The notes beneath the pieces were generated by a model. That model did no database searches. It was given only the letters and a program-made list of their open reading frames with translations, and was not told the origin of the DNA. Both the position numbers and the translations under genes were made by a program. A stretch of 64,000 bases of DNA from Candidatus Hermodarchaeota archaeon (GTDB lineage Archaea; Asgardarchaeota; Thorarchaeia; Thorarchaeales; Thorarchaeaceae), in NCBI GenBank assembly GCA_048885865.1, contig JBHLLF010000006.1, positions 63,306-127,305 of the forward strand, in the 5' to 3' direction. Positions 1 to 37,988 of the stretch are shown here, piece after piece (within the stretch, counting starts at the first letter, position 1; each line of letters begins with the position of its first letter).

Positions 1-247
1 TGGCTGGTTCCTCCCCCTCATCAAGAGAGTGAACTTTGAATGTTGTACCATGCTCTGACCGCATTCGATTTGCAGTCTGAGCCCCGATGAACTTCTTTCT
101 GACTCCCGAACGACGCCCTTTCCAGATGAATATGCTCTTGCTAACGTCATCGATGATGCAGTACACATTCTCGGATTCAAGTGAGTCTTTTGTAACTTCG
201 ACTTCAATGGATGTGCCATCATCCTGCACTTGAAACCCATTGACCAT
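1..247 (-). CDS. Gelsolin-domain protein (Asgard ProGel/1DGel-like), 3'-truncated by the window edge
   Basis: Not in the ORF track. Hand translation from ATG at 247 (GAGG upstream) gives MVNGFQVQDDGTSIEVEVTKDSLESENVYCIIDDVSKSIFIWKGRRSGVRKKFIGAQTANRMRSEHGTTFKVHSLDEGEEPA, which matches the gelsolin core pattern (L.S..vyiiD....ifiW.G..S....K..a....EG.EP). Confidence 0.8.
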   Translation of the reverse strand, partial: MVNGFQVQDDGTSIEVEVTKDSLESENVYCIIDDVSKSIFIWKGRRSGVRKKFIGAQTANRMRSEHGTTFKVHSLDEGEEPA

Positions 248-34270: not shown

Positions 34271-34326
34271 AAAATGAAAAAAGAAGGAAAGGAGGGGTGA
34301 AGGGTGAGGGCCCCAGAGCCCGCAAA
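34271..34326 (-). terminator. Pyrimidine/U-rich terminator tract after the GTPase operon
   Basis: Minus strand reads ...CCCTTCACCCCTCCTTTCCTTCTTTTTTCATTTT just after the Rab gene stop. Confidence 0.45.
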
Positions 34327-34845
34327 TCAATTTTCACTCGCCAGAGAGCGAGCGACGACCTCAAACAACTCTGAGATACCCTCTCCAGTTTTTGCAGATA
34401 CTTCTACACAGGCGGCTCCGTATCTCGCGGCGAACTCTCGCCCCTCTTCCAAAGGCACGCCTTGCCCATTTTGCCTCTCATCGATTTTGTTTCCAACAAA
34501 GATGAGCTGGCAGTCAGGAGCGTTCTCTTTCACGCGACTAATCCAATCAATGAGACGTTCAAGAGAGAAGTACCTGTTTGCATCGTAGACGGCAAGAGCT
34601 ACTCTTGCCCCTTTGAAGTATCCAGAAACTACATCCCTGAATCTGGGTTGACCCCCAAGATCCCAGAGCATCAGCCGGACACTATCTTCCTCCAGAAAGA
34701 CCTCCTTAGAAGCGAAATTGACGCCTATTGTCATCTTCATCTCTTCATCGAATCGGTTCTCAGTGTAACGAACGGTGATGCTGGTCTTGCCAACACCTCC
34801 TTCGCCAACTAGAACCATCTTGTAGATTGGGCTCCGAAGTGCCAT
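34327..34845 (-). CDS. Rab-like small GTPase (Ras superfamily)
   Basis: GEGGVGKT, TIGVNF, WDLGGQ.RF, GNKID, EVSAKTG; no C-terminal Cys. Confidence 0.92.
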   Translation of the reverse strand: MALRSPIYKMVLVGEGGVGKTSITVRYTENRFDEEMKMTIGVNFASKEVFLEEDSVRLMLWDLGGQPRFRDVVSGYFKGARVALAVYDANRYFSLERLIDWISRVKENAPDCQLIFVGNKIDERQNGQGVPLEEGREFAARYGAACVEVSAKTGEGISELFEVVARSLASEN

Positions 34846-34846
34846 T

Positions 34847-36232
34847 CTATAGTACCTCCGGACGAACTGTGCCTAGGAGCTGGTCAGCTCGGCCGGTGAC
34901 ACCTAGCCAGAACATAATGTACGCGAGGAGCAGCGTTGAGCTTGGAACGAGGCCAACAGATGTGAACTCGCCTTGAGTGAACATTCCAATTACGCTACCA
35001 ACGGCCAACAGGATAAGTCCAAGACCAAGAAACAAGGGTCTGCTTCTTCCCATAGCATCTACTTTTCTCATCCTGTACCAGAGCAAGAAATACAGTCCGA
35101 GCGGGACCATGTTCTGGATCATGTTTGTCATTCCATAGAAGGCTCCATAGCCAACAATGTTGTCTACTGGGGTAGGATAGCTCATCAGCATAAAGACCAT
35201 AGCTGGCGCTGCGATTAGAATTGGAAGCAATAGTATTCTTCGCCAATCAAGGGCAACAAAAGCGCTGAGATTGACGAACATCATAGCCATGAGGCCAAGG
35301 ATAGAGCTTGTGTAGTCATTCATCGTGCCAGTCAGTGCGCCGAGATAAGTCAGTGCCACGATGATGTAGCTCACAGACCCTACAATGAAGTAGACAGCCA
35401 ACAGACCAGTCGCAGGATTTCGTCTCTCACGGAATCTCGTAAATGTGAATGTGCTTGTCGCGAATCCTACAACCGCCAACAACGCCAGAAGACTCACTGA
35501 AACAGAGAGCATTGCATCTCCGGTCCCAATCGCTACAACGTAGGAGAGGAAGAACGCGACGACATTGATGGACAAAGCATAGCCAAAGAGCTCAATTGAA
35601 ACGCCGAGTTCAGGCTTGAGAAATGCCCAGATGGTCAGAGCTGGACCCAATAGCCGAATTCCTAGAAGGGCCGCGATCATTGAAGGATCAGTCGACGTAC
35701 TTGCCATTGGATATATGATATAAGAAACGATAAGGAATAGTAGAGCAATGGCTGTGATTCTCCCGGTTTTTCGTGCCAAATAGGCAAAGAGCACGATTGG
35801 CACTAGGTTGAGAATAAGGGATATTGGGCCTACCACCATACCGAAGCTTACTGTCAGCTCCATGAATACGATGGCGTACGTGTAGACTGTTCCAAGGGCT
35901 AGCATCACGATTGGAATGAATATAGCTCGCCTCCACTCCAATATCATGAGGGCCGCAATTGCGAATAATGCAGCTGCTAGCATTGTTGTGGCGTAATATG
36001 TTGCAGTCAACACTGAAGCAGCAGCATCAAGTGGAAGCTGATAGTTCAAGAACGAAGCCACTGCCAGTGTTAAGATTCCTATTGCTGACAGATACAAAGG
36101 CTGACCTGCACCTCTCTCTTCAGGAGAAAGGTCCGCGGTCCGCAGCCTTGTATATCGAGTTAAAATGATGGCTGCAAGAATCAATGTAACTGCCATCAGA
36201 AGTTCTGATGCATCTTGTACGAGTATTTGCAT
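34847..36232 (-). CDS. 15-TM membrane protein (duplicated 7-TM unit plus linker helix)
   Basis: About 15 hydrophobic segments; internal repeat LEWRRAIFIP / LDWRRILLLP; GGGGTGA RBS before ATG 36232 (track start 36265). Confidence 0.75.
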   Translation of the reverse strand: MQILVQDASELLMAVTLILAAIILTRYTRLRTADLSPEERGAGQPLYLSAIGILTLAVASFLNYQLPLDAAASVLTATYYATTMLAAALFAIAALMILEWRRAIFIPIVMLALGTVYTYAIVFMELTVSFGMVVGPISLILNLVPIVLFAYLARKTGRITAIALLFLIVSYIIYPMASTSTDPSMIAALLGIRLLGPALTIWAFLKPELGVSIELFGYALSINVVAFFLSYVVAIGTGDAMLSVSVSLLALLAVVGFATSTFTFTRFRERRNPATGLLAVYFIVGSVSYIIVALTYLGALTGTMNDYTSSILGLMAMMFVNLSAFVALDWRRILLLPILIAAPAMVFMLMSYPTPVDNIVGYGAFYGMTNMIQNMVPLGLYFLLWYRMRKVDAMGRSRPLFLGLGLILLAVGSVIGMFTQGEFTSVGLVPSSTLLLAYIMFWLGVTGRADQLLGTVRPEVL

Positions 36233-36243
36233 TTCTTTCACCC

Positions 36244-36633
36244 CTATAGCATCTTCGAAGCCCAATCTCCTGCGCGCTCACCAGCACCTGCGGCCTTGTG
36301 GGCGACTTCACGAATCAACTCTATGGTGTCCTCTGTGATTATGCCGTCCATGCCGTTATCGAGAATGGCTTTGACCTTTCGATTCAGATCAGCTGCATCT
36401 TTGTCATCCCGGTCATGAACGCTAACCACGAAGGAATTCTCTGTTCGTGACATAAGCATCCGAAACTTGTCCAGAGAGAGCTCCTCAAGGTCAGTTCCTG
36501 ACATCTGTTGAGTGTACATCTGAATTGCAGAGAGAAATCCTCCGAAGAGGACTTCATCTACCGTGAATTCTCCGATGTTTATTGCAGCCTGGGTTTCCCC
36601 GGCGTGATTCACTATGTAAACTCCCTGTAACAT
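36244..36633 (-). CDS. Longin-like domain protein
   Basis: GVYIVNHAGE, LFGGFLSAIQMY..QM....LEELSL, FVVSVHD..D fit the longin beta-beta-alpha-beta-beta-beta-alpha pattern of Asgard proteins. Confidence 0.75.
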   Translation of the reverse strand: MLQGVYIVNHAGETQAAINIGEFTVDEVLFGGFLSAIQMYTQQMSGTDLEELSLDKFRMLMSRTENSFVVSVHDRDDKDAADLNRKVKAILDNGMDGIITEDTIELIREVAHKAAGAGERAGDWASKML

Positions 36634-36645
36634 TACTGCTCTCAC

Positions 36646-36903
36646 CTAGAAGTTATCCATCCAGCCCTGTGCTTTATCTACAGCATCTTTTTCGTCTTGT
36701 ATTGCCTCAGCAGCGGCCTCAACATCTCTTACGGTAATGTTTCTGTCCACAAACAATACAACTGCATGGCCCTTGCCACATTTTGCGGGAACGATTACAG
36801 GAACTCGGTCTGCGTTCTTAATCGATTCCACATCTACCGTGACGCCGTCCACGACTGCTCCACACACTGGGCAGGGAACGGGTGAAAGTGTACGTTTGGT
36901 CAC
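36646..36903 (-). CDS. Small Asgard-type zinc-binding protein (CxxC...C..GH..LFVD.N..VR)
   Basis: CPVC, C.KGHAVVLFVDRNITVRDVE. GTG 36903 is the likely start because the track start 36981 lies within the operator. Confidence 0.65.
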   Translation of the reverse strand: MTKRTLSPVPCPVCGAVVDGVTVDVESIKNADRVPVIVPAKCGKGHAVVLFVDRNITVRDVEAAAEAIQDEKDAVDKAQGWMDNF

Positions 36904-36948
36904 GTCTTGCACCCATTTGGTTCGCGTTTTTGGTCCCCACCATTCCGC

Positions 36949-37000
36949 TCCCATTATGGGAAGAATGGGCAAGTTTCCCATAATGGGAACTCTATATAAA
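36949..37000 (-). promoter_or_regulatory. TATA box (TTTATATA) with twin palindromic operators TCCCAT[A/T]ATGGGA
   Basis: TCCCATTATGGGA at 36949-36961 and TTCCCATAATGGGAA at 36975-36989; minus-strand TTTATATA at 36993-37000. Confidence 0.65.
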
Positions 37001-37223: not shown

Positions 37224-37988
37224 ATGTTGATGCTTCAAGATGATTCTGGTGAAGTAACGCCTGTCAAGCTTGATGCATCACTAGTCAATAGCGACTCTGC
37301 CGTCATTGTGCTTGACGAGATTAATGATACATGCTGGGTATTTGTAGGGCGTAATGTAAACATGCCCACACGAATGCACGCACTTCGAATTGGGAAGAGT
37401 GTTGCGAAGTCAGGACACAAGATAGGGATCACCAACATTGGAATGGCATCCACGCACTATGTCGAGATGCTAGAGAAAGATGCTGGCGATCCTGAGGTCG
37501 CCGGAGCCATTGAACGATTCAGAGAAGCTATCACTAGGAGATGGCAATTTGAAGACAAATTCTTGGCATTTGATGCTGGACCGGGCCCTCCGATAGCAGG
37601 TGAAACAAGACCAGCTAAACCAGAACCTGAGCCAGAACGTCAGCCAGAACCTGAGCCACCCCCGCCTGTTCCTGAAACACCCACTATCACAGCTACAACA
37701 GTCACAGAAGAACCTGAGCCATCGCCAGTCGTCGCCCCTCCTTCAGGTGCGGCTGAGCAAAAGACTGCATACCTGATATACTCAGCAGTTCGAAACGCAG
37801 ACTTAGTCTATACAGAACGCTTCGAGCGCGATGGAAAGATGGGTGTCAAAATAGAGGCCCCAGGAATTATGGTAATCGAAGCAGTACAGGATGGAGACGA
37901 CCTTCATATCGACCCAGCCGACTTTGGTGACTCTGACGAAGCATCACAAATCAAAGCTGACTATGAATCATGGGTTGGCAAGCTCTAG
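37224..37988 (+). CDS. Gelsolin-like domain + Pro-rich linker + C-terminal domain (1DGelX-like)
   Basis: LVNSDSAVIVLDE..DTCWVFVG......R..A matches the gelsolin core; PEPEPERQPEPEPPPPVPETP linker. Confidence 0.6.
   Translation: MLMLQDDSGEVTPVKLDASLVNSDSAVIVLDEINDTCWVFVGRNVNMPTRMHALRIGKSVAKSGHKIGITNIGMASTHYVEMLEKDAGDPEVAGAIERFREAITRRWQFEDKFLAFDAGPGPPIAGETRPAKPEPEPERQPEPEPPPPVPETPTITATTVTEEPEPSPVVAPPSGAAEQKTAYLIYSAVRNADLVYTERFERDGKMGVKIEAPGIMVIEAVQDGDDLHIDPADFGDSDEASQIKADYESWVGKL

Follow-up and report, generated by a model that had tools for sequence, protein, structure and literature searches.

A conserved four-gene operon of Thorarchaeota pairs a double seven-helix membrane protein with a Rab-like GTPase and probably encodes a membrane-associated switch

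An operon of four genes was analyzed in the window, a stretch of 64,000 nucleotides of contig JBHLLF010000006.1 from a Candidatus Hermodarchaeota archaeon. The genes lie co-directionally on the minus strand between positions 34327 and 36981 and encode, in this order, a Zn-ribbon-like protein, a longin-fold protein, a membrane protein with 15 transmembrane (TM) helices and a Rab-like small GTPase, with intergenic gaps of 12, 11 and 1 nt when ATG starts are considered. We regard it as probable, at about 60%, that these genes together encode one membrane-associated small-GTPase switch module. Asgard archaea contain dozens of eukaryote-like small GTPases, 34 in the case of this genome. Since they lack lipid anchors and seldom lie in informative operons, hardly any of them can be assigned a regulator, a membrane or an output.

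Products of the four genes

The last gene of the operon encodes a small GTPase that matched the Pfam family Ras with an E value of 8e-42 (143 bits versus a cut-off of 21.6). Motifs G1 to G5 are intact (GEGGVGKT, T39, WDLGGQ, NKID and SAK), switch II contains DxxGQ, and residues G14-S22, T39, D62, G65, Q66, N119, K120, D122 and S150-K152 are invariant in 18 homologues. The 60 best relatives listed among solved structures were all Rab or Ypt proteins, headed by Ypt6/Rab6, Rab11 and the Thorarchaeota Rab 7EZB (E 3e-33 to 9e-32), and scores for non-Rab proteins reached E 4e-12 for Arf and E 6e-7 for Gtr1/RagA. The protein ends in ...RSLASEN, devoid of a C-terminal prenylation Cys, and no Cys is conserved at this place in the 18 homologues; there is no long N- or C-terminal extension, nor a lipid anchor or an amphipathic helix of its own. 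When a profile of module GTPases was run on the 34 small GTPases of the genome, the three module members scored 286-299 bits and the next protein 153. Consistent with this, a tree computed with IQ-TREE grouped 28 out of 28 sampled module GTPases in a single clade (100/99), apart from the other ~31 small GTPases of the genome. This clade holds just two other sequences, namely a second GTPase flanking the module of genome G002 and one long branch.

The AlphaFold2 (AF2) model of the membrane protein, with a mean predicted local distance difference test score (pLDDT) of 85.2 and a predicted template-modelling score of 0.80, consists of 15 TM helices joined by loops of at most 12 residues and contains no soluble domain. 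Residues 84-178 align with residues 314-413 (BLASTP E 4e-8; hhalign probability 90%, E 1.8e-6), so that TM1-7 pair with TM9-15, with TM8 as a linker, in a parallel 7+1+7 pseudo-dimer. Both seven-helix (7TM) units are predicted to have the N-terminus outside and the C-terminus inside, and the loops assigned to the inside carry 18.9 Lys plus Arg versus 0.7 for those assigned to the outside (mean of 21 homologues). Conservation amounts to 0.69 on the predicted cytoplasmic side versus 0.46, the lowest value, on the outer side. Two invariant motifs are on the predicted cytoplasmic side, LDW[RK]R following TM3 of unit 2 and GRADxLLGT following TM15; a short helix is also present after TM15. Within the membrane, R193 in the middle of TM7 of the first unit (codon 35654-35656), N321 in TM11, Y171 and E214 are also invariant; these buried polar residues could mark a binding pocket or a contact between the units.

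The fold of the C-terminal unit was compared with 48,161 chains by VIA-align. Residues 238-451 matched the 7TM domains from G-protein-coupled receptors (GPCRs), with Z up to 17.1 and a root-mean-square deviation (rmsd) of 3.4 Å over 204 residues, it being understood that helical bundles with Z below about 13 may share a mere common arrangement and that a shared fold proves no function. GPCRs or designed GPCR-like folds accounted for 48 of the best 50 matches, and a second look placed class C GPCRs at Z 13-16. No transporter or channel was found among these best 50 matches, which cover residues 233-459. Foldseek searches with the whole model gave no match at E ≤0.001; its top row was LYCHOS (GPR155), which was not significant (E 0.036, TM-score 0.29), and rows for MATE, MurJ and NOR were weak (E > 0.06, TM-score 0.13-0.22). 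At the sequence level, Pfam and NCBIfam returned 0 families at E up to 1, and thus no relation to 7tm families. The nearest named cluster of the Atlas was HisKA_7TM, at a score of 0.84, which serves as a lead only since the label is carried by 10% of the cluster members. A search for single-unit relatives of about 230 amino acids (aa) returned fragments only, and Atlas clusters of 215-240 aa, scoring 0.93, have no sequence link to the 7TM unit.

These features bear on the idea that the membrane protein is the output of the system, the GTPase, longin and Zn proteins serving to switch on or position a membrane activity, for example the handling of lipids, a channel function or the shaping of membranes. 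The conserved intramembrane polar residues would fit such an activity, the co-conservation of the four genes described below fits it equally well, and the 7+1+7 layout recalls the 3+1+3 layout of SWEET proteins, where a single transport path is made by two units; LYCHOS, whose second part is transporter-like, is also among the weak top rows of Foldseek (not significant). However, the best 50 structural matches to the C-terminal unit included no transporter or channel, the protein has no assigned sequence family, and its repeats are parallel, unlike the inverted repeats typical of secondary transporters. We thus consider this explanation quite unlikely.

The protein encoded by the second gene is, in its AF2 model (pLDDT 84.6), a longin at the level of fold. 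Its elements (E2-9, E14-19, H27-45, E51-54, E57-63, E67-74, H80-93 and H101-116) follow the order beta-beta-alpha-beta-beta-beta-alpha-alpha, and it is this order, together with structural matches over the whole domain, that sustains the assignment. Foldseek matched the model to AP2 sigma (E 9e-6), to TRAPP Bet5/Trs23 (TMq 0.67-0.71), to Mon1-Ccz1 and also to roadblock proteins. VIA-align matched it to COPI, CPLANE, TRAPP, Mon1-Ccz1, VAMP7, Sec22 and BLOC-3 at Z 10-11.8 across 107-122 residues, and longin proteins covered residues 1-118/125 of the model whereas roadblock proteins covered just residues 1-98. The sequence itself gave no Pfam match, no curated longin family was reached above threshold, and sequence and profile searches of solved structures yielded nothing significant, but Fuz_longin_1, the Pfam model of the first longin domain of FUZ/MON1/HPS1, produced sub-threshold matches in 8 of 19 family members (best E 0.0015). 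The protein is a single 129-aa domain and not a tri-longin subunit, and the operon of the window contains no second longin gene. Longer longin forms (P0198 and a 201-aa open reading frame, ORF, in locus L048) were considered as Zn-longin fusions and discarded as artefacts of upstream ORF extension.

The first gene encodes a protein with the motifs CPxC and Cx3H, i.e. two putative knuckles providing four ligands, which are invariant in 20 of 20 homologues; the invariant residues are C37, P38, C40, C68, H72 and W107. Several zinc-ribbon Pfam families matched below threshold (best E 0.012), and sequence and profile searches of solved structures returned no significant relative; in particular, a Mss4-type Rab chaperone, considered as an analogue, was absent from those searches. 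The true start of the gene is probably GTG 36903, giving a protein of 85 aa and a leader of about 65 nt: codon V27 is where the orthologues begin, and in the closely related orthologous locus L002 the sequence ahead of it shows no conservation as protein. Two further proteins related or similar to the Zn domain were observed in the genome. A 73-aa relative is encoded at C20:23497-23715. At C27:31598-33103 a gene for a 171-aa small GTPase is followed by one for a 286-aa protein, whose N-terminus resembles the module Zn domain with some loss of ligands (CPIC ... H-GKPSH) and is fused to an unassigned C-terminal part; this pair might be related to the module, as a degenerate or variant form lacking the 7TM protein.

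The longin and Zn proteins terminate in a similar manner. The longin family ends in ...[KR]AxxW[AG]xx[LF] (...ERAGDWASKML in the window, codons 36247-36270) and the Zn family in ...KAxxWxxx[LF] (...DKAQGWMDNF, codons 36649-36675), in both cases after a variable linker, and the Trp of the tail is invariant in 19 longin and 20 Zn homologues. Such similar tails may represent a shared docking motif. The protein encoded by the divergent neighbour of the operon also terminates in ...YESWVGKL.

Most of the components described above had been proposed by a sequence-only reading of this DNA and withstood the present analysis. The spacing of the four tightly packed genes was the same on re-reading the ORFs, and the TATA box and U-rich terminator assigned to them are both present as sequence features. 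The small Zn-binding protein is borne out as a motif and the longin domain by the fold recovered with AF2, Foldseek and VIA-align; the AF2 model and the internal repeat agree with the claim of a 15-TM protein built from two 7-TM units without a catalytic domain; and the GTPase, announced as intact, unprenylated and Rab-like, has all five G motifs, Rab/Ypt proteins as best relatives and no C-terminal Cys. That reading had also named a transporter fold and a lack of synteny as grounds for its rejection. The C-terminal unit proved GPCR-like by VIA-align, and the membrane gene, as detailed in the following section, is kept beside GTPase and longin genes.

Conservation, duplication and surroundings of the module

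The membrane protein belongs to a small family: clustering at 90% identity gives 45 clusters, 51 representatives were found among 1.84 billion proteins, and all named members are from Asgard archaea. In a species-level genome collection the neighbours were unchanged at 17 of 17 loci. Matches were found in 52 of 400 Asgard genomes, including 44 of the 85 of family f1 (Thorarchaeota) and, in more distant families, all three of f4 and 2 of the 19 of f14; one f4 genome is labelled Atabeyarchaeia, and a longin homologue labelled Njordarchaeum exists. Loci, including those with weaker and paralogous matches, were scanned with profiles of five proteins, those of the module and that of the divergent neighbour. 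This identified 57 distinct copies of the membrane gene, of which six, cut by contig ends or fragmentary, were left out. In the 51 copies counted, all four genes occurred together 49 times; the Zn and longin genes were immediately upstream of the membrane gene in 50 copies, and a module GTPase was present within 1.5 kb, also in 50. The GTPase gene was located downstream in 28 copies, upstream in 20 and in convergent orientation in 2, with a constant Zn-longin-membrane order. The exceptions were a tandem second copy in genome G334, which has no Zn or GTPase gene apart from those of the first copy, and the copy at locus L069. As the position of the GTPase gene varies, the four-gene linkage was kept through rearrangements and not merely inherited; chance is excluded by its presence in 49 of 51 copies and in permuted orders.

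The genome of the window harbors three complete modules, on contigs C6, C22 and C11, each with its own four genes. Each component resembles its orthologues from other genera more closely than the paralogues encoded by the same genome, indicating that the modules were duplicated as units. The genomic evidence for a functional unit is as strong as such evidence gets.

Conservation of this kind must be weighed against the possibility that the genes are merely needed simultaneously and that their products form no complex, or that the three soluble proteins cooperate with the membrane protein as a passenger. The fixed Zn-longin-membrane order, while the GTPase gene moves, leaves sub-groupings ambiguous, which would suit this explanation. 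We nevertheless judge it very improbable, since the four genes are maintained together across at least three Asgard families, and duplication of the whole set along with a GTPase clade tied to the module is a pattern typical of physically interacting products.

The multi-copy character of the module would also be compatible with a conflict or defence system, in which the GTPase would be the switch and the membrane protein an abortive-infection effector; many prokaryotic cassettes of an NTPase plus a membrane protein are indeed defence systems. However, none of the five proteins had a PADLOC match, the module is inherited vertically and keeps orthologous positions across genera, the surroundings are of a housekeeping nature (acetolactate-synthase-like, alcohol-dehydrogenase-like and galactose-metabolism genes) and there are no signs of mobile elements. 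A defence function thus appears scarcely credible.

Several copies show traces of local rearrangement. In locus L054 (G334:C3) a complete set (Zn, longin, membrane, GTPase) precedes a further longin-membrane pair that has neither a Zn nor a GTPase gene to itself, and in L076 (G332:C36) a tandem duplication has left a second copy that retains the longin gene, its membrane gene having decayed to fragments. At positions 8439-8642 of L008 (= L032) a 68-aa remnant of a GTPase N-terminus, with a disrupted P-loop, separates the membrane gene from the intact GTPase gene, apparently the trace of a local duplication. An apparent GTPase-Zn fusion in the C22 paralogue turned out to be an artefact of ORF extension, a stop codon separating the two genes. 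In the same C22 module of the window's genome (L048, 4793-5599), a gene for a 268-aa protein ends 4 nt inside the start codon region of the GTPase gene, an overlap that suggests a fifth co-transcribed gene. The N-terminal region of this protein is common to an adjoining 904-aa protein with repeated sensor-like segments; the gene is not present beside the module of the window.

The coordinates of the genes and of their accompanying elements are collected in Table 1.

Table 1. Coordinates of the operon, its putative signals and the divergent gene in the window
Feature	Position	Strand	Remarks
Zn-ribbon-like protein gene	36646-36981	minus	longest ORF, 111 aa
Longin-fold protein gene	36244-36633	minus	129 aa; ATG 36633 to stop 36244
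15-TM membrane protein gene	34847-36232	minus	461 aa; ATG 36232 to stop 34847; 7TM + linker TM8 + 7TM
Rab-like small GTPase gene	34327-34845	minus	172 aa; ATG 34845 to stop 34327
TATA-like box TTTATATA	36993-37000	minus	upstream of the operon; read from sequence
Palindrome TCCCATNATGGGA, two copies	36949-36961 and 36976-36988		downstream of the TATA-like box, ahead of the Zn gene's probable GTG start
T-rich tract	34271-34290	minus	candidate archaeal terminator; read from sequence
Divergent neighbour gene	37224-37988	plus	254 aa; weakly gelsolin-like N-domain, Pro-rich linker, unassigned C-domain

In an alignment of orthologous loci, a TATA-like element was found at the equivalent position in L001, L002, L003 and L005. 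The T-rich tract contains 16 T in 20 positions and begins 37 nt past the stop codon of the GTPase gene. The palindrome TCCCATNATGGGA has 2 matches in the 64-kb window versus 0.15 expected, and its copies are retained in the closest relatives only (L001/L020 and L002/L018); a leader hairpin or an operator specific to the genus are possible roles for the pair.

The neighbour gene is divergent from the operon, as the sequence-only reading had stated, but its product, called a gelsolin there, bears a weak likeness to gelsolin. Its product (P0005) gave no Pfam match and no match to a solved structure, including the solved Thor gelsolins, and is not among the characterized Thor gelsolins (PMC7444086). 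The Pfam gelsolin model reached E 0.048, a weak score, in 3 of 12 orthologues; alignment by hhalign with the gelsolin domains of the same genome over residues 6-60 gave a probability of 66% (E 5.7e-5), and the Atlas provided a gelsolin lead scoring 0.87. Run on the genome itself, the Pfam model recovered four other gelsolin domains, the neighbour not being among them. A gelsolin-repeat gene (Pfam Gelsolin 25.8 bits, above cut-off) lies on the minus strand at window positions 1-205 (G000 C6:63301-63510), where it is cut by the start of the window, and further gelsolins of the genome have two domains (C4:81777-82298) or one (C1:147428-147640). In genera g1, g12 and g8 and in part of g9, an orthologue of the neighbour is found next to the window-type module in divergent orientation; g15, g10 and g2 lack it at that place, as do the paralogous modules.

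A putative membrane-associated switch

In the switch module that we favor, the 15-TM protein would be the membrane partner, a covalent parallel pair of GPCR-shaped 7TM bundles with its conserved surface toward the cytoplasm; it is certainly a candidate anchor or platform, and possibly a sensor. The longin-fold protein would act as a regulator or platform of the GTPase, probably with the Zn-ribbon protein, and the dedicated, anchor-less Rab-like GTPase would cycle between GDP and GTP on the 15-TM/longin platform. Proteins of the longin/roadblock type are known to regulate GTPases or to provide platforms for them in Mon1-Ccz1, TRAPP, MglB and Ragulator. As no Arg is invariant in the family, we think the longin of the module more likely to be an exchange factor or a scaffold than an Arg-finger GTPase-activating protein (GAP), although this is a guess.

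The likeness between the longin and Zn tails, in combination with the two homologous units of the membrane protein, suggests that each tail may dock on one 7TM unit. The cytoplasmic cavity of GPCRs accepts the C-terminal helix of G-alpha, and an elaboration of the switch module can be envisaged on this model, as an archaeal receptor-to-GTPase pathway in which the cytoplasmic cavity of each 7TM bundle would receive the conserved tail of one soluble partner. The bundles would change in response to a ligand, a lipid or the state of the membrane, and this change would act on a longin-based exchange factor and, through it, on the dedicated Rab-like GTPase. This elaboration is speculative, and we hold it to be unlikely. 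If true, it would mean that 7TM-G protein coupling via longin-type regulators, with the logic of LYCHOS/GATOR1/Rag, predates eukaryotes in Asgard archaea.

A different proposal is that a ligand, outside the cell or within the membrane, is sensed by the double-7TM protein, which in turn, in the manner of a GPCR, drives nucleotide exchange on the Rab-like GTPase, directly or via the longin and Zn proteins, with actin as the output. The GPCR-like fold with its predicted N-out, C-in topology speaks for it, as do LDW[RK]R, a conserved motif of acidic, aromatic and basic residues where TM3 of unit 2 meets the cytoplasm, the short helix past TM15 and the invariant intramembrane residues R193 and N321; a weakly gelsolin-like neighbour, moreover, adjoins one module lineage. 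Against it, the outer loops span 3-12 residues and are the least conserved portion of the protein, which has no ectodomain and, with 0 Pfam matches, no sequence relation to any 7TM receptor family. The gelsolin identity of the neighbour is unproven, and the paralogous modules and three genera lack the gene. On balance we regard this proposal as rather doubtful. It corresponds to the GPCR-analogous module of the sequence-only reading, of which the gene products, the synteny and the GPCR-like fold have stood and the two ends of the pathway are unsupported: the extracellular signal finds no support in outer loops so short and so variable, and the actin output rests on a weakly gelsolin-like neighbour that accompanies one module lineage only.

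Several points weigh against the switch module itself. The products of the putative operon would bind one another, but tight operons can also reflect co-regulation of proteins that never touch. Z values of 13-17 among helical bundles denote a shared arrangement and neither homology nor function, and they pertain to the C-terminal unit, the fold of the N-terminal unit being deduced from the internal repeat. The longin family has no invariant Arg or other recognizable catalytic residue, which makes exchange-factor or GAP activity a guess, and we infer not only that the longin is an exchange factor rather than a GAP but also the direction of information flow and the output. Finally, the copy at L069 has no GTPase gene within 4 kb. 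Structure prediction of a complex of the four chains, with the membrane protein as partner, gave ipSAE values of 0.36, 0.32 and 0.32, and control predictions gave 0.00 and 0.00 with the partner replaced and 0.20 with the GTPase replaced; these values provide no verdict, neither for nor against, and were not used.

The switch module names candidates for a regulator (the longin), a co-factor (the Zn protein) and a membrane partner for one dedicated clade of Rab-like GTPases, and the three paralogous modules of the genome can act as mutual specificity controls. How Asgard Rab-like GTPases reach and read the membrane becomes in this way a directly reconstitutable question.

Comparison with known systems

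No published description of the four-gene module was found in the literature searched. Within that literature, and to our knowledge, no prokaryote has been described in which a receptor-shaped double 7TM protein is genetically tied to a small GTPase. Among the structural clusters that a 2026 preprint lists for Asgard archaea and eukaryotes are, without detail, "7TM proteins" and "a class C GPCR", which may include this family.

The Thorarchaeota protein Thor-Rab (7EZB/7EZD/7EZE; PMC10933270) is, like the GTPase of the module, Rab-like and without a prenylation Cys, and the two match with E 9e-32. Thor-Rab is, however, a different paralogue without a known partner, whereas the module GTPase has an informative operon context. 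Such a context is unusual. In MK-D1, GTPase genes are generally located outside operons containing roadblock, longin or TRAPPC3 genes, which makes their regulators hard to assign (Tran et al. 2024, PMC10933270), and conserved neighbourhoods are missing for most eukaryote-like genes of Asgard archaea (Liu et al., 10.1101/2020.10.19.343400). In view of both reports, the earlier premise that Asgard GTPases often cluster with longin/roadblock genes was overstated. An Asgard operon described in the latter study, comprising a LAMTOR1-like roadblock protein, a Rab-like GTPase and a DENN-domain protein (10.1101/2020.10.19.343400), resembles the module as a conserved neighbourhood that pairs a Rab-like GTPase with candidate exchange factors of the longin/roadblock superfamily. 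By contrast, the module has no DENN protein, contains the double-7TM and Zn proteins and is not described by Liu et al.

With the eukaryotic exchange factors of Rab proteins that are based on longin domains, the module shares the longin fold, the weak Fuz_longin_1 matches mentioned above and a Rab-like partner, and structural matches at Z 10-11.6 across 112-122 residues extend to CPLANE (Fuzzy-Inturned), Mon1-Ccz1, BLOC-3 and TRAPP. Unlike systems of the Mon1-Ccz1 type, it has one single-domain longin in place of a tri-longin subunit or a multi-subunit complex, and the sequence matches are sub-threshold.

The 7TM domains of GPCRs, above all those of class C and adhesion receptors, resemble the membrane protein in connectivity and in predicted N-out/C-in orientation, with Z 13-17 and rmsd 3.3-4.2 Å over about 200 residues. 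Class C receptors act as 7TM dimers, and the two units of the module protein are covalently joined. The differences are an identity of 5-14%, the lack of a Pfam 7tm match and of an ectodomain, and a candidate partner that is a monomeric Rab-like protein and not a heterotrimeric G protein; the common fold may be a case of convergence. In eukaryotic lysosomes, LYCHOS (GPR155)-GATOR1-Rag and SLC38A9-Ragulator-Rag combine multi-pass membrane proteins with longin/roadblock complexes that control small GTPases. The module is alike in joining a membrane protein, GPCR-like in one domain in the case of LYCHOS, to longin/roadblock control of a small GTPase, an analogy in logic only, as the Foldseek match to LYCHOS is non-significant and the module GTPase is Rab-like, not Rag-like.

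Among bacterial systems, MglA-MglB likewise has a small GTPase gene beside the gene of a small alpha/beta regulator of the longin/roadblock type, and MglB is among the best structural matches of the longin-fold protein (Z 12.1). It differs, however, in having neither a membrane nor a Zn protein and in the roadblock order of MglB, which covers residues 1-98 only; the module GTPase, whose best matches are Rab proteins, retains the Ras/Rab-type DxxGQ.

The closest known architecture, and a precedent for the switch module, is that of the actinobacterial conservon (CvnA-CvnB-CvnC-CvnD), a four-gene operon, present in many copies, that encodes a membrane histidine-kinase-like protein, an MglB-type roadblock protein, a domain-of-unknown-function (DUF) protein and a Ras-like GTPase (PMC4316618, PMC13343842). 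The match is architectural only, no sequence relation having been found, and the hosts are bacteria in one case and an Asgard archaeon in the other. CvnA is histidine-kinase-like with an ATPase domain, whereas the membrane protein of the module is a pure double 7TM protein without kinase, ATPase or soluble domain; CvnB has the roadblock order and the module protein the longin order; CvnC is a DUF protein, in contrast to the CPxC...Cx3H zinc protein; and CvnD is of the MglA type, in contrast to a Rab-like GTPase. Within the known prokaryotic class that combines a small GTPase, a longin/roadblock regulator and a membrane component, what is new here is thus that none of the four families matches those of the conservon. 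Both systems nevertheless consist of an operon for a membrane protein, a roadblock/longin-superfamily protein, a small protein and a Ras-superfamily GTPase, with paralogous copies and co-evolving components, and the title of Komatsu et al. (2006), as cited in PMC4316618, likens the conservon to G-protein-coupled regulation by a membrane-associated heterocomplex.

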